Assembly: GCA_026225415.1 (NCBI GenBank)
Contig: JAMFSS010000006.1
Span: forward strand, 1-64,000
DNA: 64,000 nt
DNA from: Alphaproteobacteria bacterium
GTDB taxonomy: Bacteria; Pseudomonadota; Alphaproteobacteria; UBA9219
Direction: 5' to 3'
Below the pieces are notes generated by a model. That model was not told where the DNA came from and ran no database searches. It saw nothing but the letters and a program-made list of their open reading frames with translations. The position numbers and the translations under genes are program-made. This document shows, in pieces, positions 44,085 through 60,388 of the stretch (position 1 is the stretch's first letter; each line of letters opens with the position of its first letter).

Positions 44085-44174
44085 ACTTCACAGAACCACA
44101 CTATCAATCGCCGAAGTTTGCGTTGAATGATGCGATTTTTCCAAAAAATGCAACAGACCCCCAAAATCCGACGA

Positions 44175-44923
44175 TCAGAGAACGCCCAACATGCTGGCGA
44201 CCAACGGATGACGCACAACATCTTTGTCCGTCAGCGTCACGACAGCAATGCCCGAAACCTTGTCCAGCTTGTGTGCGATTTGCGCCAGGCCCGAAACCCC
44301 TTCCAGCAAATCGCTTTGGTCGGGGTCGCCGGTCAAAACCATTGTCGAATGCCAGCCCAAACGGGTAAGCAGCATTTTAATCTGGCCATAGGTACAGTTC
44401 TGCGCTTCGTCAATCACCACAAAGGCATTGTTCAACGTACGCCCACGCATAAAACCAATCGGCGCAATTTCAATCGAGCCATCGGCCATATATTGTTTCA
44501 AACGTTTGCCGCCCATGCGGTCATTGAGCGCATCATAAAGAGGCGCAAAAAGGGCGACATTTTTTCCTGTAAATCGCCGGGCAGGAAACCAAGCGTTTCG
44601 CCCGCTTCGACCGCCGGACGCGACAGGATGATACGGTCAACACGACCGGCTTCCAACGCTTCGACGGCAGCCGTGATGGCCAGATAGGTTTTACCGGTAC
44701 CGGCGGGCCCAACGGCCACAACCAGATTATGTTGCGCCATCGCATCCATCAGAAGCGATTGGTTGGCATTTTGCGGTTTTATCTTGCGGACATAGGATTG
44801 GTCGCGCCGTTCAAAACCGGGTTGATTTAAAGGATCCCAGGGCGAATTGGATGTATAAAGGGGTTCGACATTATGCGACTTTTCATTACGGTTTGAACTG
44901 TCAAAATGACGACGCTTGCCCAT
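44175..44923 (-). pseudogene. phoH: PhoH-like ATPase gene interrupted by a single-base frameshift
   Basis: N-terminal ORF (44498..44923) reads ...VGPAGTGKTYLAITAAVEALEAGRVDRIILSRPAVEAGETLGFLPGDLQEKMSPFLR and then leaves frame. The conserved continuation PLYDALNDRMGGKRLKQYMADGSIEIAPIGFMRGRTLNNAFVVIDEAQN... is in another frame (ORF 44175..44516). The shift maps to about 44542-44556 (ggcgcaaaaagggcgac). Confidence 0.6.
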
Positions 44924-45341
44924 AGAGGCTCCTTTTCCGTCCGGCGGATGAAAACCGGACATGAACAAACCGTGCGGACACACTGCGTGACCGCATCGGG
45001 ATCTGTGAAAATATAGGTTGGGATTGAAGTGCAGAAGATACAGGGCCGGAAGATGGCTTTGGTTTGAAATATGCTGAATAAGACCTGTTAATCTTACTGC
45101 CTCCTGTTCGGCTGCCCCTTGAAGCATTACGGGGCAAAAAAACCATTAACCTGTTGAATTACAAGGTATTTACTTATGCCCTGTTAACTCTACTACCACT
45201 ATACGATAAGTCGGTTAAGAAACCATTAGGAAAGGTTCGAATTTTATATAATTCCGCATCCGCAACCTTCCTGATTTCCTTGACTCTAGGAGGAGTAATC
45301 CTTAGGTTGCGCGTCTGTTTCTAAGATTAAAGGATGTTCCT

Positions 45342-45467
45342 ATGAAAGTCGCCAATTCTCTGAAGTCGCTGAAAAAGCGCCACGCCGATTGCAAAGTTGT
45401 GCGCCGCAAGGGTCGCACCTATGTGATCAACAAAACCAACCCGCGCTATAAATCGCGTCAAGGTTAA
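45342..45467 (+). CDS. rpmJ: 50S ribosomal protein L36 (Cys-poor type B / YkgO-like form)
   Basis: Hand-translated: [41 protein letters not shown], 41 aa. It is absent from the ORF track because it is under 60 aa. The glycosyltransferase-like gene follows 8 nt later. Confidence 0.85.
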
Positions 45468-45475
45468 GTTTTGCG

Positions 45476-46366
45476 GTGAGCAAACCACAACAAATTGTGG
45501 TGACTGCTTGCAATGATCTGTATCTTCCCCTCGCGCTAGGATTGTTGAAATCCTTACGCGAGGTTTCTTTTTCTACCCCCTTCGACATTGGCGTGATCGA
45601 TGTCGGCCTTGGTGATGAAACCAAGGCCCGAATTGCCGCGTTCGGCGCCATAATCGTTCCCGCCCAACTGCACTTTGATTATCCGGGACGCGCGGCATGG
45701 GAAGAACATAATTTCGCCTATCGCGCCATGACATCGCGGCCTTTTTTACGCGAACATTTCACCGGCTATCAAACCTATTTATGGATCGATGCCGATGCGT
45801 GGGCGCAAACGCCTGACGCCATCGACACGATGTTGGCGGGTGCCGCCAATAGCGATGCACTCCATATCATTTCGGAAATCGACCGCGATTACACGCCATA
45901 TTTCCTCAGCTCGCAGCCATGGAATTATCATTTCAAATGGTACAGCGCCAATTTCCCCAGGGAATCCGTGGCCGCGATTTTTCCGCGCCCGATGTTGAAT
46001 TCAGGCGTTCTGACCATGCATACCTCATCGCCAGTGTGGAAAGCATGGGGCGATACCTTGGCGTATTGTTTACAAAATAAACCCGTCATCACGCGCGACC
46101 AGTTTATGTGCGATCAGTTGAGTTTGAATATGGCCGTGTATACGCAAGGCCTGCCGTTGAAGGTAATGCCTGCCGAATATAATTGGCTGTCGCTTTACGC
46201 GACTCCTATGTGGGATGCCGAACGTAAATTATTCGTACGCCCCACCCCGCCGCGCAGCGTGATTTCGATTTTGCATCTAACGCATGAAAAAAAATTGCGT
46301 GAGTTCGATTTGGATATTGTCGGGGGCGGCACGTATACACGCACGCTTCTTAACCAAACTACTTAA
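45476..46366 (+). CDS. putative nucleotide-diphospho-sugar glycosyltransferase (DxD motif; GT8-like fold)
   Basis: VVTACNDLYLPLALGLLKSL...YLWIDADAW. GTG start. The assignment is tentative. Confidence 0.4.
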   Translation: MSKPQQIVVTACNDLYLPLALGLLKSLREVSFSTPFDIGVIDVGLGDETKARIAAFGAIIVPAQLHFDYPGRAAWEEHNFAYRAMTSRPFLREHFTGYQTYLWIDADAWAQTPDAIDTMLAGAANSDALHIISEIDRDYTPYFLSSQPWNYHFKWYSANFPRESVAAIFPRPMLNSGVLTMHTSSPVWKAWGDTLAYCLQNKPVITRDQFMCDQLSLNMAVYTQGLPLKVMPAEYNWLSLYATPMWDAERKLFVRPTPPRSVISILHLTHEKKLREFDLDIVGGGTYTRTLLNQTT

Positions 46367-47237
46367 CTGCGGCCGCATCAATACCCGCTTCCGATGCTAC
46401 CGCCGCTTCAATAGAAGCCGCATCAAGCGCCGACTTACCGCCCAATTTCACATAACGCGCGCAGGCATGATCGAGCGCGAGGATGGATTTATCAGGATTG
46501 TTGCGATTGCGGATATAGCGGTCGGTGAGTTTCACCACTTTGGCGCAAGCTTCGCGGTCGATGGTCACGCCATAATGTTTTTCAAAATTGCCCTTCAGGT
46601 TCATCAAGATATTCAATGTCATCTGCGTATCAGGCGTGGCGAGGAATATTTTCTGGAAACGGCGATCAATGGCGGGTTCCACCGTCACATAATCTTCATA
46701 TTCTTCACGCGTGGTCGCACCAATCACATATAAATCGCCCGCCGTCAGATAAGGCTTCATCAAATCGGCAATCCCGGAATAGCTGGATGCTTTGAAGGCC
46801 AGCATCAGCTGATGAATTTCATCGATACAGAAAATAATCGGCGGGAAATCACGTGTCGCATTGCGTTCGGCAACGCCTTTTAAAATCGGGATCAAACGCC
46901 CTTCCAGATCGGCGCGTGATTGCGAACCGGCACCGATCATCGACATTTCAAGTTCGATAATGCGCGCACCCTTCAACATATCTGGCACGCGACCCTGTGC
47001 GATCCATTGCGCCAGACCGATGAACAAAGCGGTTTTACCGACACCGGCACCGCCCAGCAACATGATATTCTTCCGCAAACGTTGCAAAAGAATCAGCGTC
47101 ATATAATCGATCTCTTCATCACGACCAGAAATAGGATCGAATTTCCCTTCGCGTTCCTGCAATGTAATGTCACGGGTGTAGCGGTGAATCAAACCGTTGA
47201 GTTCGTCATCGGAGATTACAAAATTATGCTTGGTCAT
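46359..47237 (-). CDS. stand-alone AAA+ ATPase resembling the D1 domain of ClpA/ClpB
   Basis: GKFDPISGRDEEIDYMTLILLQRLRKNIMLLGGAGVGKTAL...IIFCIDEIHQLM...LYVIGATTREEYEDYV...ERRFQKIFLATPD...LTDRYIRNRNNPDKSILALDHACA. This matches ClpA/B D1 (Walker A/B, sensor, arginine finger) with no N-domain or D2. Its ATG overlaps the aroB stop (ATGA). Confidence 0.6.
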   Translation of the reverse strand: MTKHNFVISDDELNGLIHRYTRDITLQEREGKFDPISGRDEEIDYMTLILLQRLRKNIMLLGGAGVGKTALFIGLAQWIAQGRVPDMLKGARIIELEMSMIGAGSQSRADLEGRLIPILKGVAERNATRDFPPIIFCIDEIHQLMLAFKASSYSGIADLMKPYLTAGDLYVIGATTREEYEDYVTVEPAIDRRFQKIFLATPDTQMTLNILMNLKGNFEKHYGVTIDREACAKVVKLTDRYIRNRNNPDKSILALDHACARYVKLGGKSALDAASIEAAVASEAGIDAAAVK

Positions 47238-48409
47238 TTGGACAGAAATTCCTCCCACACGGCGCGGATATCCTTAACATCGGTATCGCGCGAAACAAAG
47301 GCCTGCCCAATGCCGCGCAGCAGGATAAGCGTGATCTTGCCAGCTTCGGCTTTTTTATCCTGCGCCATATAGGCCATCAGACGGTCGATGTCATAAGCGA
47401 TGGAGGGCGGTTTAACCGGCAAACCCACAGTCATAAAATGCGCATGGACATCATCATAATCTTTTTGCGGGCACAACCCTAAACGCGCCGACAACCGTAG
47501 CGCCAGCAAGATGCCCAGCGCAACCGCTTCACCATGCACCAACGCATTGCCGAAACCCGTTACGACTTCCAGTGCATGCCCGAAAGTGTGCCCCAGATTG
47601 AGCAATGCGCGAACACCGGATTCGCGTTCGTCTTTGGCAACGATTTTGGCCTTGGCGGCACAGCTGGCGCCCACCGCATAAATTTGCGCATCATGATCGC
47701 CGTTGACCAATTGGCCGCCATGCGCGGCGCACCAACGGAAAAAAACCGGATCATTGATCAACCCATATTTAACAATTTCGGCATAACCGGCACGTATTTC
47801 GCGGGCAGAAAGAGAATCCAGCAACGTCACATCAGCCAACACCAGACACGGTTGATAAAACGAGCCGACGGTATTTTTGCCGTGGGTCGTATCAATCGCG
47901 GTTTTGCCGCCGACCGAACTGTCGACCTGCGCCAGCAAAGTCGTGGGGATTTGCACATAATCAATGCCGCGCATCGCAAGCGATGCGGCAAGCCCCGCCA
48001 TATCACCAACCACACCGCCGCCCAGTGCGATGATAAGGGATTTGCGGTCGATATTCGCCGCCAGAATTTTTTCCAATACAATTTGCAGCTGCGCAAAGTT
48101 TTTGTTCGCTTCGCCCGCGGGCACAACGATATGCGTCAATACATCATGGCCGCCCGCCGCCAAATTGGCTTCCAGCCTTGCGCGATAAAGTGGGTCAACA
48201 TTGCTGTCGGTCACAATCACAGAGCGACGTGCACCAAGACGCAACCGGATAAGGGTCGCGGCTTCGGATAAAATGCTGTTGCCAATAACAATGTCATAGG
48301 ATGGCGTCGTCGCCGTATCAGCGAAATCAACACGCACAATCTTGCCGGGCGTAAAACGAGCCAAATCTACAGCGGCAGAGTCGGCGGCGATTGTGGAGGA
48401 AGGAGTCAT
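47234..48409 (-). CDS. aroB: 3-dehydroquinate synthase
   Basis: A full-length AroB with GGGVVGDMAGLAAS and the metal-binding His/Glu. Confidence 0.92.
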   Translation of the reverse strand: MTPSSTIAADSAAVDLARFTPGKIVRVDFADTATTPSYDIVIGNSILSEAATLIRLRLGARRSVIVTDSNVDPLYRARLEANLAAGGHDVLTHIVVPAGEANKNFAQLQIVLEKILAANIDRKSLIIALGGGVVGDMAGLAASLAMRGIDYVQIPTTLLAQVDSSVGGKTAIDTTHGKNTVGSFYQPCLVLADVTLLDSLSAREIRAGYAEIVKYGLINDPVFFRWCAAHGGQLVNGDHDAQIYAVGASCAAKAKIVAKDERESGVRALLNLGHTFGHALEVVTGFGNALVHGEAVALGILLALRLSARLGLCPQKDYDDVHAHFMTVGLPVKPPSIAYDIDRLMAYMAQDKKAEAGKITLILLRGIGQAFVSRDTDVKDIRAVWEEFLSK

Positions 48410-49590
48410 TTACCGATCAGCTCCTCTGCCTGGGCGCGCGCGGCCTCATCAGCTTCGCGCAACACTTCCAAATCAGTCAACGGCGCAGCATTGCTGCCAT
48501 TCAACACGGATTCATTAATGCGTTCGATATCCAAAAATCCTATACGTTTATCAAGGAAAGCCTGCACCGCGACTTCGTTGGCGGCGCTGAGCATGGCGGG
48601 CGCGGTGCCACCTTTTTTCATCGCTTCCTGCGCAAAACGCAAAGCGGGGAATTTAACCGGGTCAGGATTTTCAAATGTCAGCGAACCGATTTTCGCCAGC
48701 TCAAGACGCGGCACCGGTGTTTCCATCCGCTGCGGCCACGCCAAACAATAACCAATGGGGGTGCGCATATCGGGCGAACCCATTTGCGCCAGAACCGACC
48801 CATCGCGATATTCAACCATGCTGTGAATAACCGATTGCGGATGCACCAAAACATCGATTTGTTCGGGCGGCATCTGGAACAGGAAGTGCGCTTCGATAAC
48901 TTCGAGCGCCTTGTTCATCAAGGTTGCGCTGTCGATAGAAATTTTCGCGCCCATGCTCCAAACGGGATGTTTGACCGCCTGTTCCGCCGTCATCTTTGCC
49001 ATGTCTTCGCGCGACGTCGTACGGAACGGCCCACCGGAAGCGGTCAATATCAATCGCGCGATGCCTTCGGGATTATTGAAATCGAAAACCTGATAAATCG
49101 CGTTATGTTCGCTGTCGACCGGCAACAAGGTCGCGCCCGCTTCGGCGACAAGCTTCATCATCAAAGGCCCGGCGCACACCAACGTTTCCTTGTTCGCAAA
49201 GGTAATCGTCGCGCCGCGCCGCGCCGCCGCCAATGTGCCGGGCAAACCTGCCGCGCCCACAATGGCCGACATAACCCAATCGCTGTCGGCCTGTGCCGCT
49301 TCTTCAACCGCTTTGGCACCCGCAGCCGCCTGAATGCCAGTGCCAGCCAGCGCGTCTTTCAACGATGCATATTGGCTTTCATCGGCGACAACCGCCATTG
49401 CGGGCTTCAACAGTTTTGCCTGCTCCACCAATAATGCGACATTCTTATTGGCTGTCAGCGCGACCATTTCGTACGCATCGGGCGAACGCGCGATAAGGTC
49501 GATCGTTTGTTGGCCGACCGAACCGGTCGAACCCAAAATCGTGATTTTGCGTTTCGCCGCATTTGTTTTTATTTTTTGAACAACAGTCAC
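48406..49590 (-). CDS. dxr: 1-deoxy-D-xylulose 5-phosphate reductoisomerase
   Basis: ITILGSTGSVGQQTIDLI is the NADPH-binding motif. A full-length Dxr. Its stop overlaps the aroB start by 4 nt. Confidence 0.95.
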   Translation of the reverse strand: MTVVQKIKTNAAKRKITILGSTGSVGQQTIDLIARSPDAYEMVALTANKNVALLVEQAKLLKPAMAVVADESQYASLKDALAGTGIQAAAGAKAVEEAAQADSDWVMSAIVGAAGLPGTLAAARRGATITFANKETLVCAGPLMMKLVAEAGATLLPVDSEHNAIYQVFDFNNPEGIARLILTASGGPFRTTSREDMAKMTAEQAVKHPVWSMGAKISIDSATLMNKALEVIEAHFLFQMPPEQIDVLVHPQSVIHSMVEYRDGSVLAQMGSPDMRTPIGYCLAWPQRMETPVPRLELAKIGSLTFENPDPVKFPALRFAQEAMKKGGTAPAMLSAANEVAVQAFLDKRIGFLDIERINESVLNGSNAAPLTDLEVLREADEAARAQAEELIGK

Positions 49591-49599
49591 ATCACCCTC

Positions 49600-50481
49600 T
49601 TAAAACCAGCCGATATGTTCGCCCAAAGCTTTTTGAAAAAGAAACGCAAAAAAACCGGCGAAAGCCAAACCATCAATGCGATCGAGCACGCCGCCATGGC
49701 CGGGGATCAGATCGCCACTTTCTTTAACGCCCGACCGGCGTTTGAAATGCGATTCAAACAAATCGCCCAATTGGGCAACCACCGCCAGAAGCGGCGAGAG
49801 AACTACGGCGACCAAAGGCATTTGCGCCCCCATCCAACGCGCCGTAAGATAGCCCATAAGAATGGCCAAAGCCATCCCACCAAATAACCCGGCCCATGTC
49901 TTACTGGGGCTTATCGCGGGCGCAAGTTTGGCGCCGCCAATGATACGCCCCGCGACATAGGCGCCGATATCGGTGCCCCAGACGGTAAGCAGCACAAAGA
50001 AAACCAGCCCCGCGCCAACATCGGGCGTGGCGCGCAATGATAACAAAGCAAGCCCGCTGCCCCCCATATAAGGGATGCCGAGCGCAATCCAGGCCGCATG
50101 CTCATTTTGGTCACGCGCTGCCAGTAAAAACAAAACCAATGTCGCCAGCACACCCAGCATCGCACCGAAAGAAGGCGATAGCAGCATACCCGCCAACATG
50201 ACGATAATCAGCAAGGCGCAAGCGATGCCAACCATTTTGGGGTTCGTGGCATGGTTATGCGAAGCGGGCACAATAAGCCGCAACCACTCAAATAACCCCA
50301 CAACAACTACACAAGTGATCAGCGCCCCATAGGCAATTCCGCCCAGATAAACGCCCAATAGGGCAACAGGGGTCATAATCGCCGCCGAGATCAGGCGCAG
50401 ACGCAAATTCGCAATATCGAATTTTTCAAGAAGGGGGGCAGCTTGCAAGGATTTCAACCTGTAAAATAGAGAAAGAATCAC
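49600..50481 (-). CDS. cdsA: phosphatidate cytidylyltransferase (CDP-diglyceride synthase)
   Basis: A multi-transmembrane protein with the C-terminal CdsA signature (...FESHFKRRSGVKESGDLIPGHGGVLDRIDG). Confidence 0.85.
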   Translation of the reverse strand: MILSLFYRLKSLQAAPLLEKFDIANLRLRLISAAIMTPVALLGVYLGGIAYGALITCVVVVGLFEWLRLIVPASHNHATNPKMVGIACALLIIVMLAGMLLSPSFGAMLGVLATLVLFLLAARDQNEHAAWIALGIPYMGGSGLALLSLRATPDVGAGLVFFVLLTVWGTDIGAYVAGRIIGGAKLAPAISPSKTWAGLFGGMALAILMGYLTARWMGAQMPLVAVVLSPLLAVVAQLGDLFESHFKRRSGVKESGDLIPGHGGVLDRIDGLAFAGFFAFLFQKALGEHIGWF

Positions 50482-50580
50482 TCTTTCTAATGGTTTAACA
50501 CGGGTTCAAATCATAGGTACAGTCTTGTTACGTCCTTTCCGCGCCAAATATTAACAAAATCTTATGGCTATGCCCTTAAA

Positions 50581-51225
50581 ATGACGAGGTTTATCCCAAG
50601 ATACTGGAACAGCATGTTTCTTGTCGTTTTTGTCACTTTGGTGATTTCGATCATCGCCTTGTTCGGGCAGGTTTTAACCCTGCAGACCGCGAAAATTAAT
50701 GCCGCGCAGATTGGCCTGATGCAAACCATGATGGCATGGCATGCGGGTGCCGTCGCCGTGGGCAAAACGATTTTACCCGCCAGCCTGACGACCGCCGGAT
50801 GTTATTTAAATGCCGGATTAACGGGGGTCACCAATTGCCCGTCTTCTGTTGCCATAGCCAATGTGCCTCCCGGCTATAATTTTGGTCAATTCAGTTTTAA
50901 TTCGCTGGCGTTTGTGACCCCACCACCGGCTGTCGCCTATGTTGTTACCTATGTGGGGGCAACAGCGGCGACAGGCAATCTGGTTTTGCCGGGCAACGGG
51001 GCTGGCGCTTTTGAAACCGGTTATTCCATGAAGGATTTATCGCGGCAATTCGCCCGGGCGGTGCCGGTTTATCTGGCCTATGGTTCTGTGACCAGTTCCG
51101 GCATATTGACAATCGTGGCAAAATCCGGTGGGTCTGCAACCGGCGATACGCCACCCGCCACGACCTATTCTATTCCTATCTCGATTCCCACAGGTTCGCT
51201 GGCTATACTCTCGGTTGCCCAATGA
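50581..51225 (+). CDS. hypothetical membrane-anchored protein, operonic with the pilin-like fibre protein
   Basis: An N-terminal transmembrane helix (MFLVVFVTLVISIIALF) then a Gly/Thr/Ala-rich extracytoplasmic region. The stop overlaps the next gene. An alternative start lies at 50614. Confidence 0.4.
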   Translation: MTRFIPRYWNSMFLVVFVTLVISIIALFGQVLTLQTAKINAAQIGLMQTMMAWHAGAVAVGKTILPASLTTAGCYLNAGLTGVTNCPSSVAIANVPPGYNFGQFSFNSLAFVTPPPAVAYVVTYVGATAATGNLVLPGNGAGAFETGYSMKDLSRQFARAVPVYLAYGSVTSSGILTIVAKSGGSATGDTPPATTYSIPISIPTGSLAILSVAQ

Positions 51226-51251
51226 TGTTTATGACGCAAAAGGAACGCCCT

Positions 51252-52697
51252 ATGACAAAACGCCCTTTCCAATATCGCTCGCGCGGTTTTACGCTTATCG
51301 AATTGGCCATCGTCCTTGGCGTGGTTGGTGTGTTGGCAGCCGGTTTGTTCCGTCTGATGTCGACTGGTAATTCGCAAAGCAAAGATGCATCAACAGCACA
51401 ACAACAACAGGCATTGATCGCAGCCGTTGCCGGGTATTTGTCGGATAATAGTTCGGGTGGTGGACAGAATGTGATGAAGGCGATGGGCGCCTATGGCACT
51501 CAAAATATTCCTCTGCCGACCAGCAATACAAGCCTTAGCAACTGCCAAGCCACGGGCTACGCTTTATCGGGTGGTCTCGCCAGCCCTTATGCCAATATGT
51601 GTAACTTTCTGCCACCTGGCTTTACCCAAAGCACCACAAATTCTTATGGCCAAACTTATACTATTCAGGTTTTGAAAGATAACACGCCACCCGGCCCCAC
51701 TGCGCCGCAAACCTATTCTTATGAAATCGCGACAACCGGCCCCGTTGTGCCTGATGTGGATGGCGGCCGCATTTCCAGCCTGATCGGCGGCGATGGCGGT
51801 TTTGTTTACACATCGCCTGTTTGCACAGGTGCTGCATCATCGGTAACCGCGTGCGGTACCATGGGCGCGTGGAGCAACGTCATCACCAATCCCGGCACGT
51901 CGCAAGGTTATGGTTTTGCGTCTTCACAATTCGGTTCGATCGTTTCGCGGAGCTTTATTTCGCCCGGCACCAACAGCAGCTATTTCTGGCTGGCACGCTC
52001 TCTTATGCCGAGCGGTGCGCCGGATCTGACCTACAATACAATGGCGACCGATTTATATATGAGCGGTGCGACTAACATCAATATGAGTAGTGGCGCTTTG
52101 ATTTTCAGCGGCACCGATGTTAGCGGATCGATCCAGATGGGTACCGGTTTTATTAATTTGGCTTCGGGCTATATTTCCGGGCCGGGTCTGGCGGGTGGCG
52201 CCGCCCAAATTGAATTGGGCAGCGGTGCCTATACGGCAGGCACACTGATTTCCTTAACAACCGGATGCACGGCCATATCAACGGCGGGCTGTCCCGCAGC
52301 CCTTTATGTGACCACGGGTGATGTCTTCGTTGCCGGAGAAGTTACAGCAACAAAAGTTTATTCAGCATCGGATGAACGTTTGAAAATGAATATTCACCCC
52401 ATCGTCAACCCTTTAGACAACATCATGAAGATTGACCCGGTCAGCTTTAATTTTAAAAATGGCGGTTCAGCCAGTATGGGTATTGTCGCCCAGCAGCTTG
52501 AAACCGTGTATCCTGAATTGGTTCATGAAACCAACGGCACGAAATATGTCGAATACACCGCCCTGATCGGGCCGTTGATCGGCGCCATTCAGGAATTGAA
52601 GCATCAGAATGATGATCTTCGTGCCAAACTGCATGAACAGGAAATGCGGGAACAGGATTTGGAACGCACTTTAAAAGGCACGTCGGCAACCCCCTGA
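51252..52697 (+). CDS. type IV prepilin-like N-terminus fused to a Gly/Ser/Thr-rich fibre region and a C-terminal intramolecular-chaperone / peptidase S74 domain
   Basis: The start is trimmed to MTKRPFQYRSRG|FTLIELAIVLGVVGVLAAG, a canonical prepilin leader with the G-F-T-L-I-E motif. The C-terminus reads SASDERLKMNIHPIVNPLDNIMKIDPVSFNFKNGG...MGIVAQQLETVYPELV...VEYTALIGPLIGAIQELKHQNDDLRAKLHEQE, paralogous to the ORF at 318..959. Confidence 0.6.
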   Translation: MTKRPFQYRSRGFTLIELAIVLGVVGVLAAGLFRLMSTGNSQSKDASTAQQQQALIAAVAGYLSDNSSGGGQNVMKAMGAYGTQNIPLPTSNTSLSNCQATGYALSGGLASPYANMCNFLPPGFTQSTTNSYGQTYTIQVLKDNTPPGPTAPQTYSYEIATTGPVVPDVDGGRISSLIGGDGGFVYTSPVCTGAASSVTACGTMGAWSNVITNPGTSQGYGFASSQFGSIVSRSFISPGTNSSYFWLARSLMPSGAPDLTYNTMATDLYMSGATNINMSSGALIFSGTDVSGSIQMGTGFINLASGYISGPGLAGGAAQIELGSGAYTAGTLISLTTGCTAISTAGCPAALYVTTGDVFVAGEVTATKVYSASDERLKMNIHPIVNPLDNIMKIDPVSFNFKNGGSASMGIVAQQLETVYPELVHETNGTKYVEYTALIGPLIGAIQELKHQNDDLRAKLHEQEMREQDLERTLKGTSATP

Positions 52698-52705
52698 CAT
52701 TGTTG

Positions 52706-53077
52706 TTATTGGGTGATGATATCGCAATGGACCGCGCATTGGCCGCTTGTGTTCTGATGAATGCAGCAATGCGGCATGGTCGCGCCCTGCCCCTTGGTAA
52801 AAGCGGCAGGATTGGTCGTTAAACAACCATCATTTCCTAGACCCGAGATATCATTGAAAATATCCACGCCCTGTATGGTTGGCATGTAATGCGATGCGCA
52901 GGCACTGGCATCGGCGATCAATTTATCGGTTGAAGGGAATTGGGGATCATTACCATCGCAAGGCAAAGTTTGACGGCAGTTGAAAGCGCTCACCACCATT
53001 CCCTGCGCCATCACCTGCATGGGCGCCACGACCACAAAACCTAAAGCAACCAAACGGGCAAAAGAGGACAGGCGCAT
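52706..53077 (-). CDS. small secreted cysteine-rich hypothetical protein
   Basis: The start is trimmed to MRLSSFARLVALGFVVVAPMQVMAQG, a signal peptide with a GGAG ribosome-binding site. The mature part has 10 Cys. The signal peptide resembles that of the partial ORF at 1..289. Confidence 0.4.
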   Translation of the reverse strand: MRLSSFARLVALGFVVVAPMQVMAQGMVVSAFNCRQTLPCDGNDPQFPSTDKLIADASACASHYMPTIQGVDIFNDISGLGNDGCLTTNPAAFTKGQGATMPHCCIHQNTSGQCAVHCDIITQ

Positions 53078-53249
53078 TGGTTCTCCGGGGACAGGGACGA
53101 AACAGAAAGCCAAACATATCTTGGGCAGTTAACAAGGACAAGCCCGCATTTGGCCTTTATCTTACGCGCCGAACGGGCACCCCCACCCCGATAGACAAAA
53201 GCGCGTGGTTTCGCTATCAATACCCTTCAAAAAGTCAGGAGTATCATTG

Positions 53250-54323
53250 ATGCAAAACAGCCACTTAAAACCCGGTGTCGTTTGGGGCGAAACCTATCAA
53301 CAACTGGTATCGGCCTGCAAAAAAGGCGGCTATGCCCTGCCCGCTGTCAATGTGATTGGCACCAACAGCATCAATGCCGTTCTGGAATCCGCAGCCCGCA
53401 ATAAATCGGATATCATTATCCAGCTATCGAGCGGGGGCGCGCAGTTTTTTGGCGGTCCCTCCCTTGCCGATTCCCTGACGGCGCGTACCTTGGGCGCGAT
53501 ATCCGCCGCCCAGCATGTGCATAAAATGGCCGAACATTACGGCATCTGCGTTGTGCTTCATACCGATCATGCCAATAAATCGCTCATTCCCTGGGTGGAA
53601 GCGATGATCACCCACAGCGCCGATCACCATAGACAAAGCGGCACGCCGCTTTTCTCTTCCCACATGCTGGATTTATCCGAAGAACCTTTGGCCGACAATC
53701 TGGCCGAATGCCGCCGCATTTTGGCCAAACTTGCGCCCTTGGGCATGAGCCTTGAAATTGAATTGGGCGTAACGGGCGGCGAAGAAGACGGCGTGGGGTC
53801 GGAGGATTTGGGCAGCGCCGATCATTCGCGCCTGTATACCCAACCCGAAGATGTGTGGCAGGCTTATGAAACATTGAAACCTATCGGGCATTTTTCGGTA
53901 GCGGCATCGTTTGGCAATGTGCATGGCGTGTACGCGCCGGGCAATGTCAAATTGCGCCCCGAAATTCTGGATAAGTCGCAAAAGCTGATCCAGCAAAAAA
54001 CCGGCATCGAAAAAGCGGTTAATTTTGTTTTCCACGGCGGGTCAGGTTCCGATAAAAAAGACATTGAAAACGCCATCAGTTACGGCGTGTTCAAAATGAA
54101 TATCGATACCGACACGCAATTTGCCTTTGCCCACGGCATTGGCGGTTATGTGGCGCAAAACCCCGAAGCATTTCAGGCGCAGATAAGCCCCACAACGCAC
54201 AAGCCATTAAAAAGCCTTTATGATCCGCGTAAATGGTTACGTGTCGGCGAGAAGTCGATGGGCGCACGCATGGACGAAGCATTTAAGGATTTGGGTTCGA
54301 CCGGACGCAGCTTGGCTGCGTAA
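53250..54323 (+). CDS. fbaA: fructose-bisphosphate aldolase, class II
   Basis: IIQLSSGGAQFF...VVLHTDHANK...HGGSGS. The start is trimmed to MQNSHLK with an AGGAG ribosome-binding site. Confidence 0.92.
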   Translation: MQNSHLKPGVVWGETYQQLVSACKKGGYALPAVNVIGTNSINAVLESAARNKSDIIIQLSSGGAQFFGGPSLADSLTARTLGAISAAQHVHKMAEHYGICVVLHTDHANKSLIPWVEAMITHSADHHRQSGTPLFSSHMLDLSEEPLADNLAECRRILAKLAPLGMSLEIELGVTGGEEDGVGSEDLGSADHSRLYTQPEDVWQAYETLKPIGHFSVAASFGNVHGVYAPGNVKLRPEILDKSQKLIQQKTGIEKAVNFVFHGGSGSDKKDIENAISYGVFKMNIDTDTQFAFAHGIGGYVAQNPEAFQAQISPTTHKPLKSLYDPRKWLRVGEKSMGARMDEAFKDLGSTGRSLAA

Positions 54324-54362
54324 ATCAAAAGTCAGCTTAGCTGTTTAAAAAAGGAAAAAAAG

Positions 54363-54911
54363 ATGTTCATTCAAACCGAAGAAACACCAAACCCCGCGAC
54401 GATGAAGTTTTTACCCGGTCGCGATGTGATGGGCAGCGGAACGTTGGAAATCACCTCCGCGGCACAGGCGGCGCAGTCGCCTTTGGCAGAAATGCTTTTT
54501 AAGATCGACGATGTGCGTGGCGTTTTTCTGGGCAAGGATTTCATCACCGTCACCAAGGGCGATGAAAAAAGCTGGACGACACTTAAACCACCCGTCCTGA
54601 CCGCCATTATGGAACATTTTTCTTCGCATGCGCCGATTGTGACGGGCGCGGCAGAATCCACAGCAGAAGCGGTTGACGAGAACCCCATCATCGCCAAAAT
54701 CCGCGAATTGCTGGATCAAAAAATTCGCCCCGCCGTTGCCCAGGATGGCGGCGACATCACCTTTCAAAGCTTTGACGACGGCATTGTGTATTTGAACCTG
54801 AAAGGGTCTTGCGCGGGCTGTCCCAGTTCCAGCATGACATTGAAAGCCGGCGTCGAAAATATGTTGCGGCATTATGTGCCGGAAGTGCGCGAAGTGCGTC
54901 AAGTGCGATAA
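54363..54911 (+). CDS. nfuA: NifU/Nfu family Fe-S cluster assembly protein
   Basis: Nfu_N (MFIQTEETPNPATMKF) plus a NifU C-terminal domain with the CAGCPSS motif. Confidence 0.85.
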   Translation: MFIQTEETPNPATMKFLPGRDVMGSGTLEITSAAQAAQSPLAEMLFKIDDVRGVFLGKDFITVTKGDEKSWTTLKPPVLTAIMEHFSSHAPIVTGAAESTAEAVDENPIIAKIRELLDQKIRPAVAQDGGDITFQSFDDGIVYLNLKGSCAGCPSSSMTLKAGVENMLRHYVPEVREVRQVR

Positions 54912-54929
54912 ATAAAAGGAGCTGCGACC

Positions 54930-55958
54930 ATGAAAAAATTCTCTTCCCTTCTGTTTGCCAGCGTTTTGCTCACGCCCCTGATGGCATCCGCGCAAAGCTA
55001 TTATGAACAGGAAGGCTATCAGCCGCCGCAATTGGAACAGATGGTCGCACCCATCGCGCTGTATCCTGACGCGCTTTTAACACCGGTTTTGGTGGCATCT
55101 AATTACCCGCAACAGATCAGAGATGCGTTAGGCTGGCTCGGCAACCCCTATTTGGCGCAAACACCGCCCGATCAGGTAAGCCTGCAGTTGCAACAAATGC
55201 CATGGGATGACAGCGTTAAATTTCTGACCGCCTTTCCCCAGGTTCTGCAACGGATGAATGATAACCCTTCATGGGAACAACAGATGGGTTCGGCCTACGC
55301 CCAACAGCCTTATGATGTTATGGATGCTGTTCAAAATCTGCGCCATGATGCCGAAGAAGCAGGCGTCTTGCGCTCTAACGCGCAGGCCAGTGTTTATCAG
55401 CAAGGCAATGATATTCTGATCCAGCCAACCAACCCCAATATGATTTACGTGCCCGCCTATGATCCTGCACGCGCCTATGGCGAATGGGTTGAACCGCAAT
55501 ATCCTCCTTACGCCTTTGTTGTCGAACGTCATCGCGAACAGCTGTATGTTCCGTCGTTTTTGTCTTTCAGCTTTGTCAGCAACCATTGGCACCCTCATCC
55601 TATGGCGTGGCAAAGCCGCGAGCATGTTGATCACGCATTCCATACTTCCTATCCCGCGCCGGAAGTGCATCATGATGCACCGCATGTGGATGCGCATCAT
55701 TTTGATGCGCCCCGCCATCATGAAGATCATCCTGCGCCCGTGCATGAAGCGCCGGCAGCAGCTCCTCAAGTGCAACAGCATTTCGAAGAAGCACCGCGTT
55801 CGCCCGGCCTTGCGCATCCCCAACCGCAACAGCAGGCTGCACCTGTGCACAATGCGCCGCCCGCAGCGGCACCGGAACATCATGAAGAGCCACATCACGA
55901 GGAACCGCATCATGATGAGCCGCCCCATAATGACGGGCATGATGAGCATCATCCGTAA
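54930..55958 (+). CDS. DUF3300-family secreted protein with a His-rich C-terminal tail
   Basis: A signal peptide, then the APIALYPDALLTPVLVAS signature. The C-terminus reads HHEEPHHEEPHHDEPPHNDGHDEHHP. Confidence 0.6.
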   Translation: MKKFSSLLFASVLLTPLMASAQSYYEQEGYQPPQLEQMVAPIALYPDALLTPVLVASNYPQQIRDALGWLGNPYLAQTPPDQVSLQLQQMPWDDSVKFLTAFPQVLQRMNDNPSWEQQMGSAYAQQPYDVMDAVQNLRHDAEEAGVLRSNAQASVYQQGNDILIQPTNPNMIYVPAYDPARAYGEWVEPQYPPYAFVVERHREQLYVPSFLSFSFVSNHWHPHPMAWQSREHVDHAFHTSYPAPEVHHDAPHVDAHHFDAPRHHEDHPAPVHEAPAAAPQVQQHFEEAPRSPGLAHPQPQQQAAPVHNAPPAAAPEHHEEPHHEEPHHDEPPHNDGHDEHHP

Positions 55959-56582
55959 ATGCTGATATTGGCGTTGGATAGTTGTGGCGCGGCATGTGCC
56001 ACCGGCGTGTGGCAAGATGGTGTTATGATCGCCAGCGCCCGCGAAGATATGGCGCGCGGACAGGATGCGCGTCTGATGCCGATGCTTATGGATGTGATGG
56101 CACAGGCCAAATGTGATTTTGCGGCCTTGGATAAAATTGCCGTGACACGCGGACCGGGGAGTTTTACAGGATCACGCGTGGGGTTAGCGGCAGCACGCGG
56201 CATTGGTTTGGCGGCGAACAAATCCGTTATCGGCATCGACCGTTTTGCGATTTATCACGCAGCACATGCCGCCATCGGCAAAGATATTCTGGTGGTGATT
56301 GAATCGAAACGCGCCGAGCTTTTTTGCAAATTTTTTCCTGCGCAAAATGCACCGCATGAATTTTGTTTGTGGACCGAAGCGCAAATTGCCGATTTTATCG
56401 CCGCGCATCCCGATGTTATAATTGCCGGTGATCGCGCCAATGGCGATGAGGATATCGTGAAAATATGCGCCGATCTTGCCGCACATGCTGATGCGATGCA
56501 TCCTGACTATCAACCGCGCCCGCTTTATTTACGCGCGCCCGATGTCAGTTTTCCCACAGCCAAAGCTTCCAGCGCGCGATAA
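55959..56582 (+). CDS. tsaB: tRNA threonylcarbamoyladenosine biosynthesis protein TsaB (YeaZ)
   Basis: MLILALDSCGAACATGVW...AVTRGPGSFTGSRVGLAAARGI. Confidence 0.85.
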   Translation: MLILALDSCGAACATGVWQDGVMIASAREDMARGQDARLMPMLMDVMAQAKCDFAALDKIAVTRGPGSFTGSRVGLAAARGIGLAANKSVIGIDRFAIYHAAHAAIGKDILVVIESKRAELFCKFFPAQNAPHEFCLWTEAQIADFIAAHPDVIIAGDRANGDEDIVKICADLAAHADAMHPDYQPRPLYLRAPDVSFPTAKASSAR

Positions 56583-57049
56583 CGCCCGTGGAAATACGCT
56601 AACGGTTCCTTGGTGCCCGCGCGTTTGTGCAGATCGATAACTTCGCCGACAAAAATGCTATGGTCGCCGCCTTTATGCACCGCATGAGGTTTGCACAAAA
56701 CCCAGCCCAGCGTGCCGCGCAGAACGGGGCAACCGCCCACCCCCGCATCCCACATATTTTTCGGCGCGGGATTATGGTGACTGTCGGCAAAATGGCGCGA
56801 AACTTTTTCCTGTCCCGCTGCCAGGAAATTAATCACGAAACAATCCACCTGCCGAAAAGCTTTATGAAGCGCTGCATCACGGTCGAGGCAAAACAACACC
56901 AAAGGCGGCGCCAACGATACGGAAGTAAAAGAATTAACCGTAAGGCCAAATTCGCCCAAAGCATCATTTTGGGCCGTTACCACGGCAACACCTGTGGTAA
57001 AACATCCTAAAATCTGGCGGAATTCCGCACTGTCTATTTTTTTGCTCAT
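56525..57049 (-). CDS. flavin reductase-like FMN-binding domain protein
   Basis: FRQILGCFTTGVAVVTA...GLTVNSFTSVSLAPPLVLFCL. The start is trimmed to MSKKIDS. Confidence 0.8.
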   Translation of the reverse strand: MSKKIDSAEFRQILGCFTTGVAVVTAQNDALGEFGLTVNSFTSVSLAPPLVLFCLDRDAALHKAFRQVDCFVINFLAAGQEKVSRHFADSHHNPAPKNMWDAGVGGCPVLRGTLGWVLCKPHAVHKGGDHSIFVGEVIDLHKRAGTKEPLAYFHGRYRALEALAVGKLTSGARK

Positions 57050-57121
57050 AAGCCCCACAGAAACAGAATTTTCCTTTGTGCACAATTCTTAAATGGCATT
57101 TTGCTCGTTTTTCTTTAGAAT

Positions 57122-57577
57122 ATGGCCATGGTTAAACGCAAAAACACAGATAGAAACGTCTCTATTTCCCAAGCCGCGCTGCGTCTTGCCGCAGAAATTG
57201 ATCGCATAGCCTTTGCACAAAAATTCACGGGTTCGCCGCATGATAGGTTGTTTGATATTCTGATGGCGCGTTTCGATGTGATGCAAAAACACCGCACGGT
57301 GATTATCAACATGGCCAAGGCTGCACGGCATGATCGCGCCTTAACCCTTGCGCTTGGCCGCGCGACGATTGACGGAACCTATCGCATTATCGATACTGCA
57401 AAAATTTCTAACCCGCCGCGTCCGGTTTTGGCCGCCGGAATTACTGCGATTTATGGTTGGGCATTTTTTGCGTGGCAACGCGATACAAGCCGCGATATGG
57501 CCAAAACAATGGCGGCATTGGATCGCGGTTTGCGATTGGCAAGCAAGGCTTTGGAACTACTCAAACCACGCTCTTGA
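57122..57577 (+). CDS. hypothetical protein (possible COQ9/TetR_C-like helical fold)
   Basis: 151-aa ORF, helical with no clear HTH. The family assignment is weak. Confidence 0.3.
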   Translation: MAMVKRKNTDRNVSISQAALRLAAEIDRIAFAQKFTGSPHDRLFDILMARFDVMQKHRTVIINMAKAARHDRALTLALGRATIDGTYRIIDTAKISNPPRPVLAAGITAIYGWAFFAWQRDTSRDMAKTMAALDRGLRLASKALELLKPRS

Positions 57578-58298
57578 CGCGTGAGAGTGTAAGAACGTCT
57601 ACTTGGCTTGCGCCAGCCTTTAACAAAATACGCGCGCATTCTTCGGCTGTCGCGCCTGTCGTCAACACATCATCAATCAACACAATGTTTTTGCCATTGA
57701 TTAGCGCATGATGGTGCGGCGCAATGGCAAAAGCACCGCGCACATTATCTTGGCGTTCTTTGCGTTTCAACTTGCCCTGAATGGGTGTAGCGCGGATGCG
57801 GCGTAACAGATCCGGCATAACCGCTTTGCCCGACAACACCCCTATGTGATGAGCCAACAACGAAGATTGATTGTAACGCCGTTTAAACAACCGCCAGCGA
57901 TGAAGCGGCACCGGCATCAGATAATCCGCGCCCGCCAACATATCGCCGCCCGCGCGATACATCCATGTCGCCAAAGCCTTGGCGGTATAGGTGCGATCGC
58001 CATGTTTGAAACCCAGCACCAGCCCCCGGCTGGCATCATCATAAATCATCGCGGCGCGGGCGGCATGATAATGGGGCGGTTGCACAAGGCACGACCCGCA
58101 CACCATCCCATCACCCACCGGAATATCGAACGGTGCCCCGCAACAAGCGCAAAAAGGCGGTGCGATAAAAGGGATGGTTTTCCAACATGCCGCACATAAA
58201 GTCGCCACCCCACCCACCGGATCATCACACACAAGGCAAAGCGGCGGCAGCAACAGATCAAGCGTGCGGGTGGAGAATTTTTTAAGGACGGAACGCAT
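57561..58298 (-). CDS. comF: ComF/GntX family phosphoribosyltransferase-domain protein
   Basis: N-terminal Cys4 (CLVC...CAAC) and a PRTase motif (NIVLIDDVLTTGATAEE). The start is trimmed to MRSVLKK. Confidence 0.75.
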   Translation of the reverse strand: MRSVLKKFSTRTLDLLLPPLCLVCDDPVGGVATLCAACWKTIPFIAPPFCACCGAPFDIPVGDGMVCGSCLVQPPHYHAARAAMIYDDASRGLVLGFKHGDRTYTAKALATWMYRAGGDMLAGADYLMPVPLHRWRLFKRRYNQSSLLAHHIGVLSGKAVMPDLLRRIRATPIQGKLKRKERQDNVRGAFAIAPHHHALINGKNIVLIDDVLTTGATAEECARILLKAGASQVDVLTLSRVKSVV

Positions 58299-58429
58299 GT
58301 GGCTATTTTGCCCCAGACCGGGGCTGGTAACAAGTGGCGCCAAACCAGCGATTCTGCCTTGATGGCGCCTGCGATTGCTTTTTCTACCCAAAACATCTAT
58401 AAATCTCCGTTCCCACAAGGAGAAAAACC

Positions 58430-58723
58430 ATGAACAGCCTGAACGAAGAAGATCTGAAGAAAAACGTTAAAGACAAGGACACATGGTTGCGTTTTGTCTA
58501 TCTGGTGGTTTTCGGTGTGGCATTTTATTTGTCCATTCTTTTGACATTCGCCACTTCGGTATTTCAGTTTCTGGCCAAGCTGTTCAGCGGTTCGGCCTTT
58601 GCCGGTCTGGCAGAATTTGGCGATAATCTGGCCGCCTATCAGGGGCAGGTTACGCGCTATCTAACCTTTGCATCGGACGAAAAACCTTTTCCGTTCGCGC
58701 CATTCCCGACCAAACAACTTTAG
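58430..58723 (+). CDS. small membrane protein (DUF4389-like)
   Basis: 97 aa with two predicted transmembrane helices and a good ribosome-binding site (AGGAGAAAAACCATG). Confidence 0.35.
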   Translation: MNSLNEEDLKKNVKDKDTWLRFVYLVVFGVAFYLSILLTFATSVFQFLAKLFSGSAFAGLAEFGDNLAAYQGQVTRYLTFASDEKPFPFAPFPTKQL

Positions 58724-58762
58724 TACCCCGCATTTAATAAGCGTATTAGAAAAGGATTTCTT

Positions 58763-60304
58763 GTGAAAACCTATTATATCACCACGCCCATCTATTATGT
58801 AAACGACGTCCCGCATATCGGCCATGCCTACACGTCGCTCGCTTGCGATGTTATGGCGCGGTTTAAACGTCTGGATGGTTACAATGTCATGTTTTTGTCG
58901 GGCACCGATGAACATGGCCAGAAAATCGCCAAAGCGGCAGAAAAAGCCGGTATCGACCCGCAAGCCTTCACTGACAAGGTTTCACAGAATTTCCGCATAT
59001 TGCTGAAAAACATCAATATCTCGAATGACGATTTCATCCGTACCACAGAAGAACGACATAAAAAGGCCTGTCAGGCTTTGTGGAATGAGTTGTTAAAACG
59101 CGGCGAAATCTATCTGGGCAAATATGCCGGTTGGTATGCGATGCGCGACGAAGCTTATTACACCGAAGATGAATTGAAAGACGTCGACGGCAAAAAAATC
59201 GCGCCCAGCGGCGCAGAATGCGAATGGGTGGAAGAACCCAGTTATTTCTTCAAATTATCAGCCTGGGGCGATCGCCTTCTGAAATTCTACGAAGAAAATC
59301 CCGATTTCATCCTGCCGATTTCGCGCCGCAACGAAGTGATAAGCTTTGTCAAATCCGGCATGCGCGATCTATCCGTGTCGCGTACCGCCATCACATGGGG
59401 CGTGCCTGTGCCCGATGAGCCCAAACATGTGATGTATGTGTGGCTGGATGCTCTTACCAACTATCTGACCGCCATCGGGTATCCCGACACCAATGCCGAC
59501 ACGTTCAAAAAATTCTGGCCAGCGGATGTCCACATGGTCGGCAAAGACATTCTGCGTTTCCATGCTGTCTATTGGCCGGCCTTTTTAATGGCGGCCGGAT
59601 TGCCCGCGCCGAAACGCGTTTTCGCGCATGGCTGGTGGACGAATGAAGGACAGAAGATTTCCAAATCACTAGGAAATGTCATCGATCCCGTTGAATTGCT
59701 GGCCACCTATGGGCTGGATCAAACCCGTTATTTCCTGATGCGCGAAGTGCCGTTCGGCAATGACGGCGATTTTGCGCGTGAAGCGATGATCCGCCGCATC
59801 AACAGCGATCTGGCAAACGGCATTGGTAATCTGGCGCAACGCAGCCTGTCGCAAATCGCGAAAAATTGCGGCGGTTTGGTGCCAACACCGAAAGAGTACA
59901 CGGACAAAGACAAGGCGTTGCTGCAAAGCGCCGAAAACCTGTTGCCGCACTTGCGCAGCCTGTTCGATGTGCAGTCTTTCAGCAAAGCGCTTGATGCCAT
60001 TTGGGGCGTGATTGCCGAAGCCGACCGTTATGTCGATGAACAGGCGCCGTGGGCCTTAAAGAAAACCGATATCGCGCGTATGGAAACGGTTTTGTATGTG
60101 CTGGCGGAAACTTTACGCCATTTGGGCATTGTGTTGCAGCCCTTTATGCCCGATGCGTCCAACGCCTTGCTGGATCAGCTTGCGGTTCCCGCAGATGCCC
60201 GCAGCTTTGCGCATTTAAACGCAGCAAACGCCCTTACACCCGGCAGACCGCTGCCCGCGCCGCAAGGCATTTTTCCGCGCTATATCGAAGCGGCAAAACC
60301 CTAA
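58763..60304 (+). CDS. metG: methionine--tRNA ligase
   Basis: PIYYVNDVPHIGHAYTSL is the HIGH motif and KISKS the KMSKS motif. This is the short MetRS form. Confidence 0.95.
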   Translation: MKTYYITTPIYYVNDVPHIGHAYTSLACDVMARFKRLDGYNVMFLSGTDEHGQKIAKAAEKAGIDPQAFTDKVSQNFRILLKNINISNDDFIRTTEERHKKACQALWNELLKRGEIYLGKYAGWYAMRDEAYYTEDELKDVDGKKIAPSGAECEWVEEPSYFFKLSAWGDRLLKFYEENPDFILPISRRNEVISFVKSGMRDLSVSRTAITWGVPVPDEPKHVMYVWLDALTNYLTAIGYPDTNADTFKKFWPADVHMVGKDILRFHAVYWPAFLMAAGLPAPKRVFAHGWWTNEGQKISKSLGNVIDPVELLATYGLDQTRYFLMREVPFGNDGDFAREAMIRRINSDLANGIGNLAQRSLSQIAKNCGGLVPTPKEYTDKDKALLQSAENLLPHLRSLFDVQSFSKALDAIWGVIAEADRYVDEQAPWALKKTDIARMETVLYVLAETLRHLGIVLQPFMPDASNALLDQLAVPADARSFAHLNAANALTPGRPLPAPQGIFPRYIEAAKP

Positions 60305-60310
60305 GAAAAA

Positions 60311-60336: not shown

Positions 60337-60388
60337 CGGCATCACATTCTCAGAAGAAACGATATTCAATGGGGTGAGGCTTAAACCC

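Follow-up and report, generated by a model that had tools for sequence, protein, structure and literature searches.

The 64,000-nt stretch analyzed here (positions 1..64,000 of the alphaproteobacterial contig JAMFSS010000006.1; hereafter the window) carries a compact module of three genes, the central one of which joins the N-terminus of a type IV prepilin to an S74 intramolecular chaperone domain of the kind found on phage tail fibers. Loci of relatives are designated by L numbers (L003, L004, L065, L067-L070, L072, L073 and others). The central open reading frame (ORF) lies on the forward strand, ends at 52697, and can be read as 491 aa from a first ATG at 51222 or as 481 aa from a second ATG at 51252. 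We favor ATG 51252 because a Shine-Dalgarno sequence (AAGGAA) is found 7 nt 5' of it, the database gene call is 481 aa long, and the leaders of the homologues measure 10-17 aa. The three ORFs reported in a first-pass annotation of this DNA all exist, but the length of 491 aa given there for the fusion probably comes from the wrong start. The same applies to the reported overlap of the upstream gene's stop with the fusion gene, which is true only for ATG 51222; from ATG 51252, a gap of 26 nt separates the fusion gene from the upstream stop at 51225.

The protein encoded by 51252..52697 was identified as a PilV-like prepilin followed by a phage-type fiber and an S74 chaperone by the combination of Pfam, NCBIfam, PHROG, alignment, and hhalign analyses. 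Its N-terminus shows the short basic leader ending in Gly, the hydrophobic helix, and the Glu at +5 that are used to recognize prepilins. The class III (prepilin) leader, MTKRPFQYRSRG (51252..51287), with cleavage predicted after G12, scored above cut-off with both N_methyl (PF07963; aa 9-33, E 1.6e-6, 27.9 bits against a Pfam gathering cut-off of 21.2 bits) and the NCBIfam model of the prepilin cleavage/methylation domain, TIGR02532 (24.6 bits against 16.3). At the other end, the S74 chaperone domain with a long C-terminal helix spans aa 373-481 (52368..52694), and Peptidase_S74 (PF13884) matches aa 373-425 (E 2.6e-13, 50.5 bits, cut-off 22 bits). The prepilin leader with its cleavage/methylation motif and the C-terminal chaperone had both been called from the letters of the DNA alone; the profile searches that the first-pass annotation had proposed confirm them.

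Conservation of the fusion architecture

A word-indexed search returned ~85 full-length relatives (33-54% identity), all of which carry S74 and most of which carry N_methyl in precomputed Pfam annotations. They are encoded by metagenome-assembled genomes (MAGs) labeled Alphaproteobacteria, Rhodospirillaceae, Pseudomonadota, and Bdellovibrionales. When 1.84 billion cluster representatives were searched with the family profile, 558 proteins were found at E <= 1e-30, and ~130 of the best 150 matches cover the whole profile. The relatives form ~85 clusters when grouped at 90% identity and at least ~130 when grouped at 50%, a sizeable and uncharacterized family.

Twenty-seven members, 27-54% identical overall to the window protein, were aligned. 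N_methyl and Peptidase_S74 are both present in every one of them, and the architecture is therefore conserved and not the product of chance or of an assembly fusion. A basic leader of 10-17 aa ending in Gly was likewise found in 27/27 sequences. The invariant residues are G12, F13, T14, L15, and E17 in the prepilin motif, C191 and C201 in the pilin head, and S373, D374, and K378 at the start of the S74 domain; C339 and C347 are nearly invariant. The last three invariant residues belong to SDERLK (52368..52385), where autocleavage is predicted N-terminal to S373 by a Ser373/Lys378 dyad. SDxxxK is the catalytic motif of S74 autocleavage (PMC10769870), and SDERLK aligns with SSDRRIK of the long tail fiber of phage S16 (6f45). 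The invariance of the dyad across the alignment supports the first-pass annotation on this point as well. Conservation is highest in the alpha-1 helix (mean identity to the window protein 61%) and the S74 domain (51%). Variability is greatest in aa 261-355, a stretch of 71 to 168 aa with a mean identity of 25%, as expected of a receptor-binding part.

The first-pass annotation knew of no description of the architecture. In the literature, we found no paper describing a pilin, a pilus, or type IV pili joined to S74 or to an intramolecular or endosialidase chaperone, and none evidently about a PilV-tail fiber fusion. The databases, however, already annotate the family automatically: members carry the names PilV, "tail fiber domain-containing protein," or "prepilin-type ... 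protein."

Homology of the two halves

Profile comparison linked the N-terminal half of the fusion to PilV. The family profile aligned by hhalign with a bona fide PilV, itself matching Shufflon_N (PF04917) at E 2e-77, with a probability of 99.0% and an E value of 2.4e-18 over 221 columns (aa 1-260 against 1-221), which assigns the mature pilin part, aa 13-260 (51288..52031), to the constant region of PilV. Motifs common to both are LPxGF..N.YGQ.Y, GG..I.....R....G..GGF, G.W....YG, and [WY]L.R...N.M. The first 250 aa of the window protein were also searched by tblastn against 72,556 plasmids, and annotated pilV genes were the sole matches. A direct match to PF04917 was obtained for 3 of the 27 aligned members. 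In an AlphaFold2 (AF2) monomer model, aa 15-245 were predicted with a predicted local distance difference test (pLDDT) score of ~90 and form a pilin-like helix (aa 15-64) and an alpha/beta head reaching to aa ~245. This half thus shows the pilin fold, a long alpha-1 helix (FTLIELAIV...) packed on an alpha/beta head, and it includes the WLAR...NTM motif.

The gene neighborhood of the relatives points in the same direction. In L068, L069, and L004, the fusion gene is the last gene, in forward orientation, of a pilus operon. The order is a Secretin_N_2 secretin (PilN type), PAP_PilO, a ~310-340 aa protein, the T2SSE ATPase, and the T2SSF platform protein, then several prepilins including PilS-type ones, two leaderless proteins of ~190-200 aa, and the fusion gene (the stretch retrieved for L004 begins at the gene after the secretin). 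For L070 and L003, only the pilin part of the arrangement was seen, again with the fusion gene after PilS-type pilins. A plasmid operon of Stutzerimonas (NZ_CP073106) has the same gene order and ends in an annotated pilV. Because the PilV position in the operons of relatives, the plasmid pilV matches, the hhalign result, and the AF2 model agree, the N-terminal half is assigned by homology to a PilV-type minor pilin of an R64/IncI-like type IVb pilus.

The C-terminal half is phage-like. Residues ~245-481 match the extreme C-terminal ends of PHROG tail-fiber and baseplate families (phrog_8215, E 2e-33). Several of the tail-fiber alignments begin at aa 195-286 (phrog_1980, aa 221-471; phrog_5481, aa 244-463; phrog_21722, aa 286-462), and therefore the phage-like part includes fiber sequence before the chaperone. 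The PilV-like half gives way to the phage-like half around aa 245-260. The segment that follows, aa 246-372 (51987..52367), is rich in Gly, Ala, Thr, and Ser; from the PHROG alignments and its variability, it is presumed to be an intertwined trimeric fiber and receptor-binding region. The S74 domain matches the folds of 7dc3 and 3gw6, and the long C-terminal helix seen in the AF2 model (aa 435-477) is conserved.

The fusion as a candidate pilus tip adhesin

On this evidence, we consider it probable (about 0.6) that the fusion is a minor pilin of the PilV type and serves as tip adhesin on an IncI/R64-like type IVb pilus, with a phage-tail-fiber-like module replacing the usual C-terminal adhesin segment. 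This suggests a pilus tipped by a phage-style receptor-binding fiber. The first-pass annotation had offered either pilus display or a type II secretion system (T2SS)-like route; PilV homology and operon position support the former, whereas the machinery of the relatives is of type IVb and not a Gsp-type T2SS.

The comparison with PilV is the closest. The PilV proteins of the thin type IVb conjugative pili of IncI1/IncI2 plasmids (R64, R721, TP114; PF04917) share with the fusion the prepilin leader, the alpha-1 helix, and the homologous first ~220-260 aa. Both are encoded by the last gene of a PilN-PilO-PilP-ATPase-platform-PilS operon (for the fusion, in relatives), and in both the C-terminal part is variable and presumably recognizes receptors. 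Recipient recognition is set by the C-terminus of PilV (PMC9045228), and the authors of the TP114 study regard the tip arrangement and target recognition of PilV-type/type IVb minor pilins as still open (PMC9045228). Unlike PilV, the fusion is chromosomal and lies among housekeeping genes, has neither a shufflon nor rci, starts its mature form with Phe, and has as its C-terminal half a phage-fiber-like segment ending in an S74 chaperone for which cleavage is predicted.

Type IVb minor pilins with trimeric tips are known. CofB of the CFA/III pilus of enterotoxigenic Escherichia coli and TcpB of the toxin-coregulated pilus (TCP) of Vibrio cholerae form homotrimeric tip/initiator complexes (PMC6048534, PMC9565799). 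They consist of a pilin domain and beta-rich C-terminal trimerizing domains; located at the tip of a three-start filament, they initiate assembly and bind a secreted partner that the operon encodes (PMC6048534, PMC9565799, PMC10120004). The trimeric tip proposed here fits these two known homotrimeric pilins. The fusion is likewise built of a pilin domain and C-terminal domains and would be trimeric at the tip as they are, and it too has a conserved neighboring gene for a secreted protein. It differs in that neither sequence homology to CofB or TcpB nor fold homology of its C-terminal domains to theirs was found, in that these trimerize through H-type-lectin-like or other domains that lack a cleavable chaperone, and in that their trimeric state is one that we infer for the fusion.

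The S74 domain links the protein to a second set of systems. S74 domains trimerize and fold triple-beta-helix fibers and then cleave themselves at SDxxxK, and this includes the exported cellular MAT (mosaic adhesive trimeric) fibers of Bdellovibrio (PMC10769870). With the S74 proteins K1F endoNF, T5 pb1, S16 gp37, and the eukaryotic MyRF, the fusion shares the Pfam match, the fold (7dc3, 3gw6), the SDxxxK dyad, a position at the extreme C-terminus after a Gly-rich stretch (in the fusion, a presumed fiber), and the long C-terminal helix. Its carrier, however, is a prepilin, so that the domain would fold in the periplasm on a membrane-anchored protein, and not on a cytoplasmic virion protein or a transcription factor of the endoplasmic reticulum membrane. 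The MAT proteins of Bdellovibrio, Sec-exported cellular S74 fibers that self-cleave at SDxxxK (PMC10769870), are comparable as cellular, non-phage, exported adhesin candidates ending in S74, with self-cleavage predicted for the fusion; their fibers are thought to serve in recognition of other cells (PMC10769870). They have a Sec signal, a beta-rich N-terminal anchoring domain of ~130 aa, and a length of ~1000 aa, whereas the anchor of the fusion is a pilin. Judged by its N-terminal homology, the fusion is not a MAT protein and belongs with PilV, and it is not homologous to CofB or TcpB. The first-pass annotation had stressed a clash between pilin export and the folding of trimeric fibers; this clash is smaller than stated, since CofB and TcpB trimers (PMC6048534, PMC9565799) and Sec-exported S74 fibers (PMC10769870) are known.

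We propose the following sequence of events. The prepilin would be inserted in the inner membrane, where the prepilin peptidase would take off the 12-aa leader after G12 and leave F+1 and E+5; the motif for this step is present. The C-terminal part would then lie in the periplasm, where the conserved cysteine pairs could oxidize. There, the C-terminal S74 chaperone would bring three membrane-anchored copies into register and template the intertwined trimeric fiber of aa ~246-372, a step proposed because S74 domains behave in this way in endosialidase, the T5 fiber, MyRF, and the Bdellovibrio MAT proteins. Ser373 and Lys378, the invariant dyad, would next cut before S373, which by computation separates a chaperone of 109 aa (12.2 kDa, the ~12 kDa fragment set free) from a mature pilin of 360 aa (36.1 kDa, the ~36 kDa form that remains). 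Finally, the pilin trimer would prime and cap a three-start type IVb filament in the manner of CofB and TcpB, with the fiber at the pilus tip.

A broader model goes further and is put forward tentatively, as a set of four linked proposals that we hold possible but would not yet bet on as a whole. The fusion may represent an undescribed class of type IV pilus tip, in which a PilV-type pilin has been turned into a phage-style trimeric fiber by a periplasmic, self-cleaving S74 domain. Release of the chaperone may be a quality checkpoint that licenses pilus initiation. The family may provide the first sequence-level evidence for PilV-family pilins as tip trimers. The lineage may use such tips to recognize polysaccharides on the surface of other cells, be they prey, hosts, or potential mates, in parallel to MAT fibers and phage receptor-binding proteins; this last proposal draws on the "Bdellovibrionales" labels of MAGs, on one module located beside Dot/Icm-like genes, and on the presence of further S74 fibers.

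If the assignment holds, a PilV head would be naturally fused to an obligately trimerizing folding module that reports on itself by self-cleavage, making tip stoichiometry directly testable. The fusion links pilus tips to the folding of phage receptor-binding proteins and would widen the range of the S74 chaperone from virions, MyRF, and Sec-exported fibers to type IV pilins. It suggests a design principle, swappable phage-like receptor-binding tips on retractable pili, and it draws attention to a surface system that is conserved within a large, uncultured clade of alphaproteobacteria.

Several observations weigh against the assignment as a pilus tip adhesin. Taken by itself, the window protein gives no PF04917 match in Pfam, and its link to PilV is a profile comparison. 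The Phe at the mature N-terminus and the short leader are type IVa-like and not those of classic type IVb pilins. No shufflon-like inverted repeats were found at 50400-53400 and no rci recombinase, unlike the classic PilV switch. In the AF2 monomer model, aa 246-372 have a pLDDT below 50, and the trimeric fold is presumed; such low monomer values fit an obligately intertwined trimer, though they are no proof of one. The 64-kb window contains no ATPase, platform protein, secretin, PilO, major pilin, or prepilin peptidase, as searched by tblastn with 23 pil-operon proteins from L068-L070 together with a prepilin motif scan, and the motif scan revealed no further prepilins in the window. In the clade of the window, represented by the window itself, L065, and L067, the module stands apart from any pil operon. 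More generally, we infer trimerization, autocleavage, and pilus display from a family known by its sequences.

The detachment is the basis of the alternative that fares best, although we judge it unlikely. The protein could form an inner-membrane-anchored trimer of the periplasm or envelope that is never built into a pilus, its pilin N-terminus serving as a mere anchor where the module is detached. This would account for the lack of pilus machinery in the window and within +/-10 kb of the module in the closest relatives, and for the varied neighborhoods in which the module occurs. However, G-1, F+1, T2, L3, and E+5 are invariant even in the detached clade, none of which a plain anchor would need, and in L004, L068, and L069 the module is contiguous with full pil operons. 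Because G-1, F+1, and E+5 are fully conserved there, the sequences argue for retention of pilin function in the detached clade. In Micavibrio, an alphaproteobacterium, dispersed pil genes have been reported (PMC3189940), and therefore separation from the operon does not imply loss.

A second possibility, which we regard as quite improbable, is that the fusion is a cargo or pseudopilin of a T2SS-like machine, so that the fiber would be extruded, or shed into the medium, instead of being presented on a long pilus. The type IVb pili TCP and CFA/III also secrete proteins (PMC10120004), the gene of a distant pilin-S74 protein (P0085, described below) adjoins a lone T2SSF gene, and NCBIfam reports a weak, sub-threshold resemblance of the fusion to GspH and GspG, confined to its N-terminus. 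Against this, the machinery of the relatives is R64-type (Secretin_N_2, PAP_PilO, PilS) and not Gsp, and the pilin head shows homology to PilV. Once cut, the fiber would still carry the pilin helix, and free release is not expected. A Gsp-type T2SS pseudopilin was rejected on the same grounds.

The cleavage step itself might not take place, the S74 domain being retained as a permanent trimerization or coiled-coil module. Conservation of the C-terminal helix 435-477 would agree with such a role, but we find it hard to reconcile with the invariance of Ser373, Asp374, and Lys378 in 27 sequences that are only 27-54% identical to the window protein and with the autocleavage that SDxxxK gives in characterized S74 proteins (PMC10769870), and we rate it as very doubtful.

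The chromosomal setting bears on the weakest explanation. The ~35 window ORFs that were scanned are housekeeping genes (purA, flgD, fliK, flgI, dnaJ, dnaE, uvrA, ccmB/C, hemF, lipopolysaccharide glycosyltransferases, DAHP synthase), and no phage structural genes are among them, in agreement with the first-pass annotation. The module is flanked by aroB-dxr-cdsA on one side and by fba-nifU-tsaB on the other; in L065 and L067, these flanks are the same gene for gene, while the fusion protein is only ~50% identical. The GC content of the window is unremarkable. The idea of a prophage remnant, that is, a tail-fiber relic joined to a pilin gene by chance or misassembly, is effectively refuted by the absence of phage genes from the scanned ORFs, the syntenic housekeeping flanks, the GC content, and the recurrence of the same full-length architecture in all the clusters counted above, even if the C-terminal 230 aa match phage tail-fiber families and the NCBI label reads "tail fiber domain-containing protein."

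Shufflon-like switching of the C-terminus of the fusion was also considered and rejected: there are no repeats, and what comes next downstream is the conserved convergent gene and then fba.

With regard to the lineage, the best 120 UvrA homologues (72-89% identity) all come from MAGs labeled "Alphaproteobacteria bacterium" or, oddly, "Bdellovibrionales bacterium." No cultured relative is among them, and the lineage is uncultured. A relationship to predatory Micavibrio-like alphaproteobacteria is a lead only.

Partner genes and other features of the window

The three-gene module is kept across 16-18 loci, and synteny extends to relatives that are about 50% identical. The description of a compact module with a membrane-anchored upstream gene and a convergent gene for a secreted Cys-rich protein is correct. 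The upstream gene (50614..51225, forward strand) encodes a leaderless protein of 203 aa with an N-terminal hydrophobic helix. It can be read as 214 aa from ATG 50581, but the conserved start is M12 (ATG 50614), and family members begin M[YF]LxVFV. Homologues were found directly 5' of the fusion gene in 16 of 18 loci. W42, H43, and C63 are invariant in this family, C75 is nearly invariant, and an LPxGY motif is present. No match was obtained in Pfam, NCBIfam, or PHROG, and a sequence search of the PDB with the profile gave nothing meaningful. A homologue search returned three proteins. The upstream protein is modeled as a pilin fold that has no leader and comes nearest to PilM; the structure model from a three-sequence alignment reached a pLDDT of only 63. 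No homology to the pilin head of the fusion was detectable (hhalign probability 1.8%). Speculatively, its role may be that of a PilM-like component in pilus assembly or at the tip.

The convergent downstream gene lies on the reverse strand. Its ORF spans 52706..53113, and from an internal ATG at 53077 it encodes a small Sec-secreted protein of 123 aa (52706..53077), a signal peptide followed by a mature protein of ~100 aa with eight conserved cysteines. By tblastn, homologues occupy the same convergent position in at least eight loci. The ORFs from 13 loci align, with a signal peptide in common and cysteines arranged as C..C / C / C / CC / CxxxC. Searches of Pfam, NCBIfam, and PHROG gave no match. 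By analogy with CofJ and TcpF, and again as a speculation, the protein may act as an accessory, either in the periplasm or bound to the tip.

Between the PilS pilins and the PilM-like gene, the pil operons of relatives encode another conserved protein family, ~190-200 aa long and with a hydrophobic N-terminus (L068 8727..9299; L069 8421..9002; L070 8499..9098; L004 8353..8937; L003 4237..4824). It has no prepilin motif and no Pfam match, and it is absent from the window.

The window contains a second S74 gene that the first-pass annotation had missed (321..959, reverse strand). It encodes a protein of 213 aa with a Sec-type signal peptide, MQKASLKIMALAAIMTVGVSSGARA, then a Thr/Gly/Ser-rich stalk of ~65 aa, SSDARLK, and Peptidase_S74 (Pfam E 2.1e-16). 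The C-termini of this protein and the pilin fusion share 39% identity over 140 aa (E 7e-31), and the neighbors of the gene are a GIY-YIG nuclease gene (1342..1629) and purA, with no phage genes. By its sequence, it looks like a miniature exported S74 fiber, closer to the logic of the Bdellovibrio MAT proteins than the fusion is, yet only 213 aa long.

Further S74 genes were noted in relatives. In L072 (8763..12886), a distant protein of 545 aa, P0085, has N_methyl and S74 but a pilin head that cannot be aligned to the PilV-like family, and it may be an independent pilin-S74 fusion. Its gene lies between a lone T2SSF gene and the gene of a 411-aa protein, upstream of polysaccharide-export genes. 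In L007, an extra S74-terminated fiber (6..986, forward strand), cut at the contig end, is encoded ~4 kb upstream of the module; its repeated VGIGTxxPxxxL motifs are similar to the capping-loop consensus reported for MAT fibers of Bdellovibrio, and the gene of a Gly-rich 404-aa protein comes next. The 411-aa and 404-aa neighbors are unrelated, and a partner gene shared by P0085 and the L007 fiber was rejected. In L073 (1..9000), which carries the family member P0062, the module is found beside Dot/Icm-like type IVB secretion genes (TrbI/DotG-like, DotM_C) together with genes of several large proteins that match nothing in Pfam, a setting that recalls the thin pilus and I-type type IV secretion system of IncI plasmids. 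In these bacteria, S74 modules seem to recur as parts from which exported proteins are built.

Three other features of the window were recorded. A thiamine pyrophosphate riboswitch (RF00059) was detected with Rfam at 4271..4372 (forward strand; 54.6 bits, just over the gathering score). It lies directly 5' of, and slightly overlaps, an ORF of 334 aa (4362..5366) with no Pfam match, which may encode an unannotated thiamine-related transporter or enzyme. An HNH endonuclease gene (8136..8744) lies in a low-GC patch at 8001..10000 (0.435 against ~0.52 elsewhere), and two ORFs located there (9215..9913 and 10005..11072) have no Pfam match; the patch may be a small foreign insertion. A flagellar cluster with flgD, a fliK-like hook-length gene, and flgI is found at 16828..21661 on the reverse strand, and the organism is probably motile.

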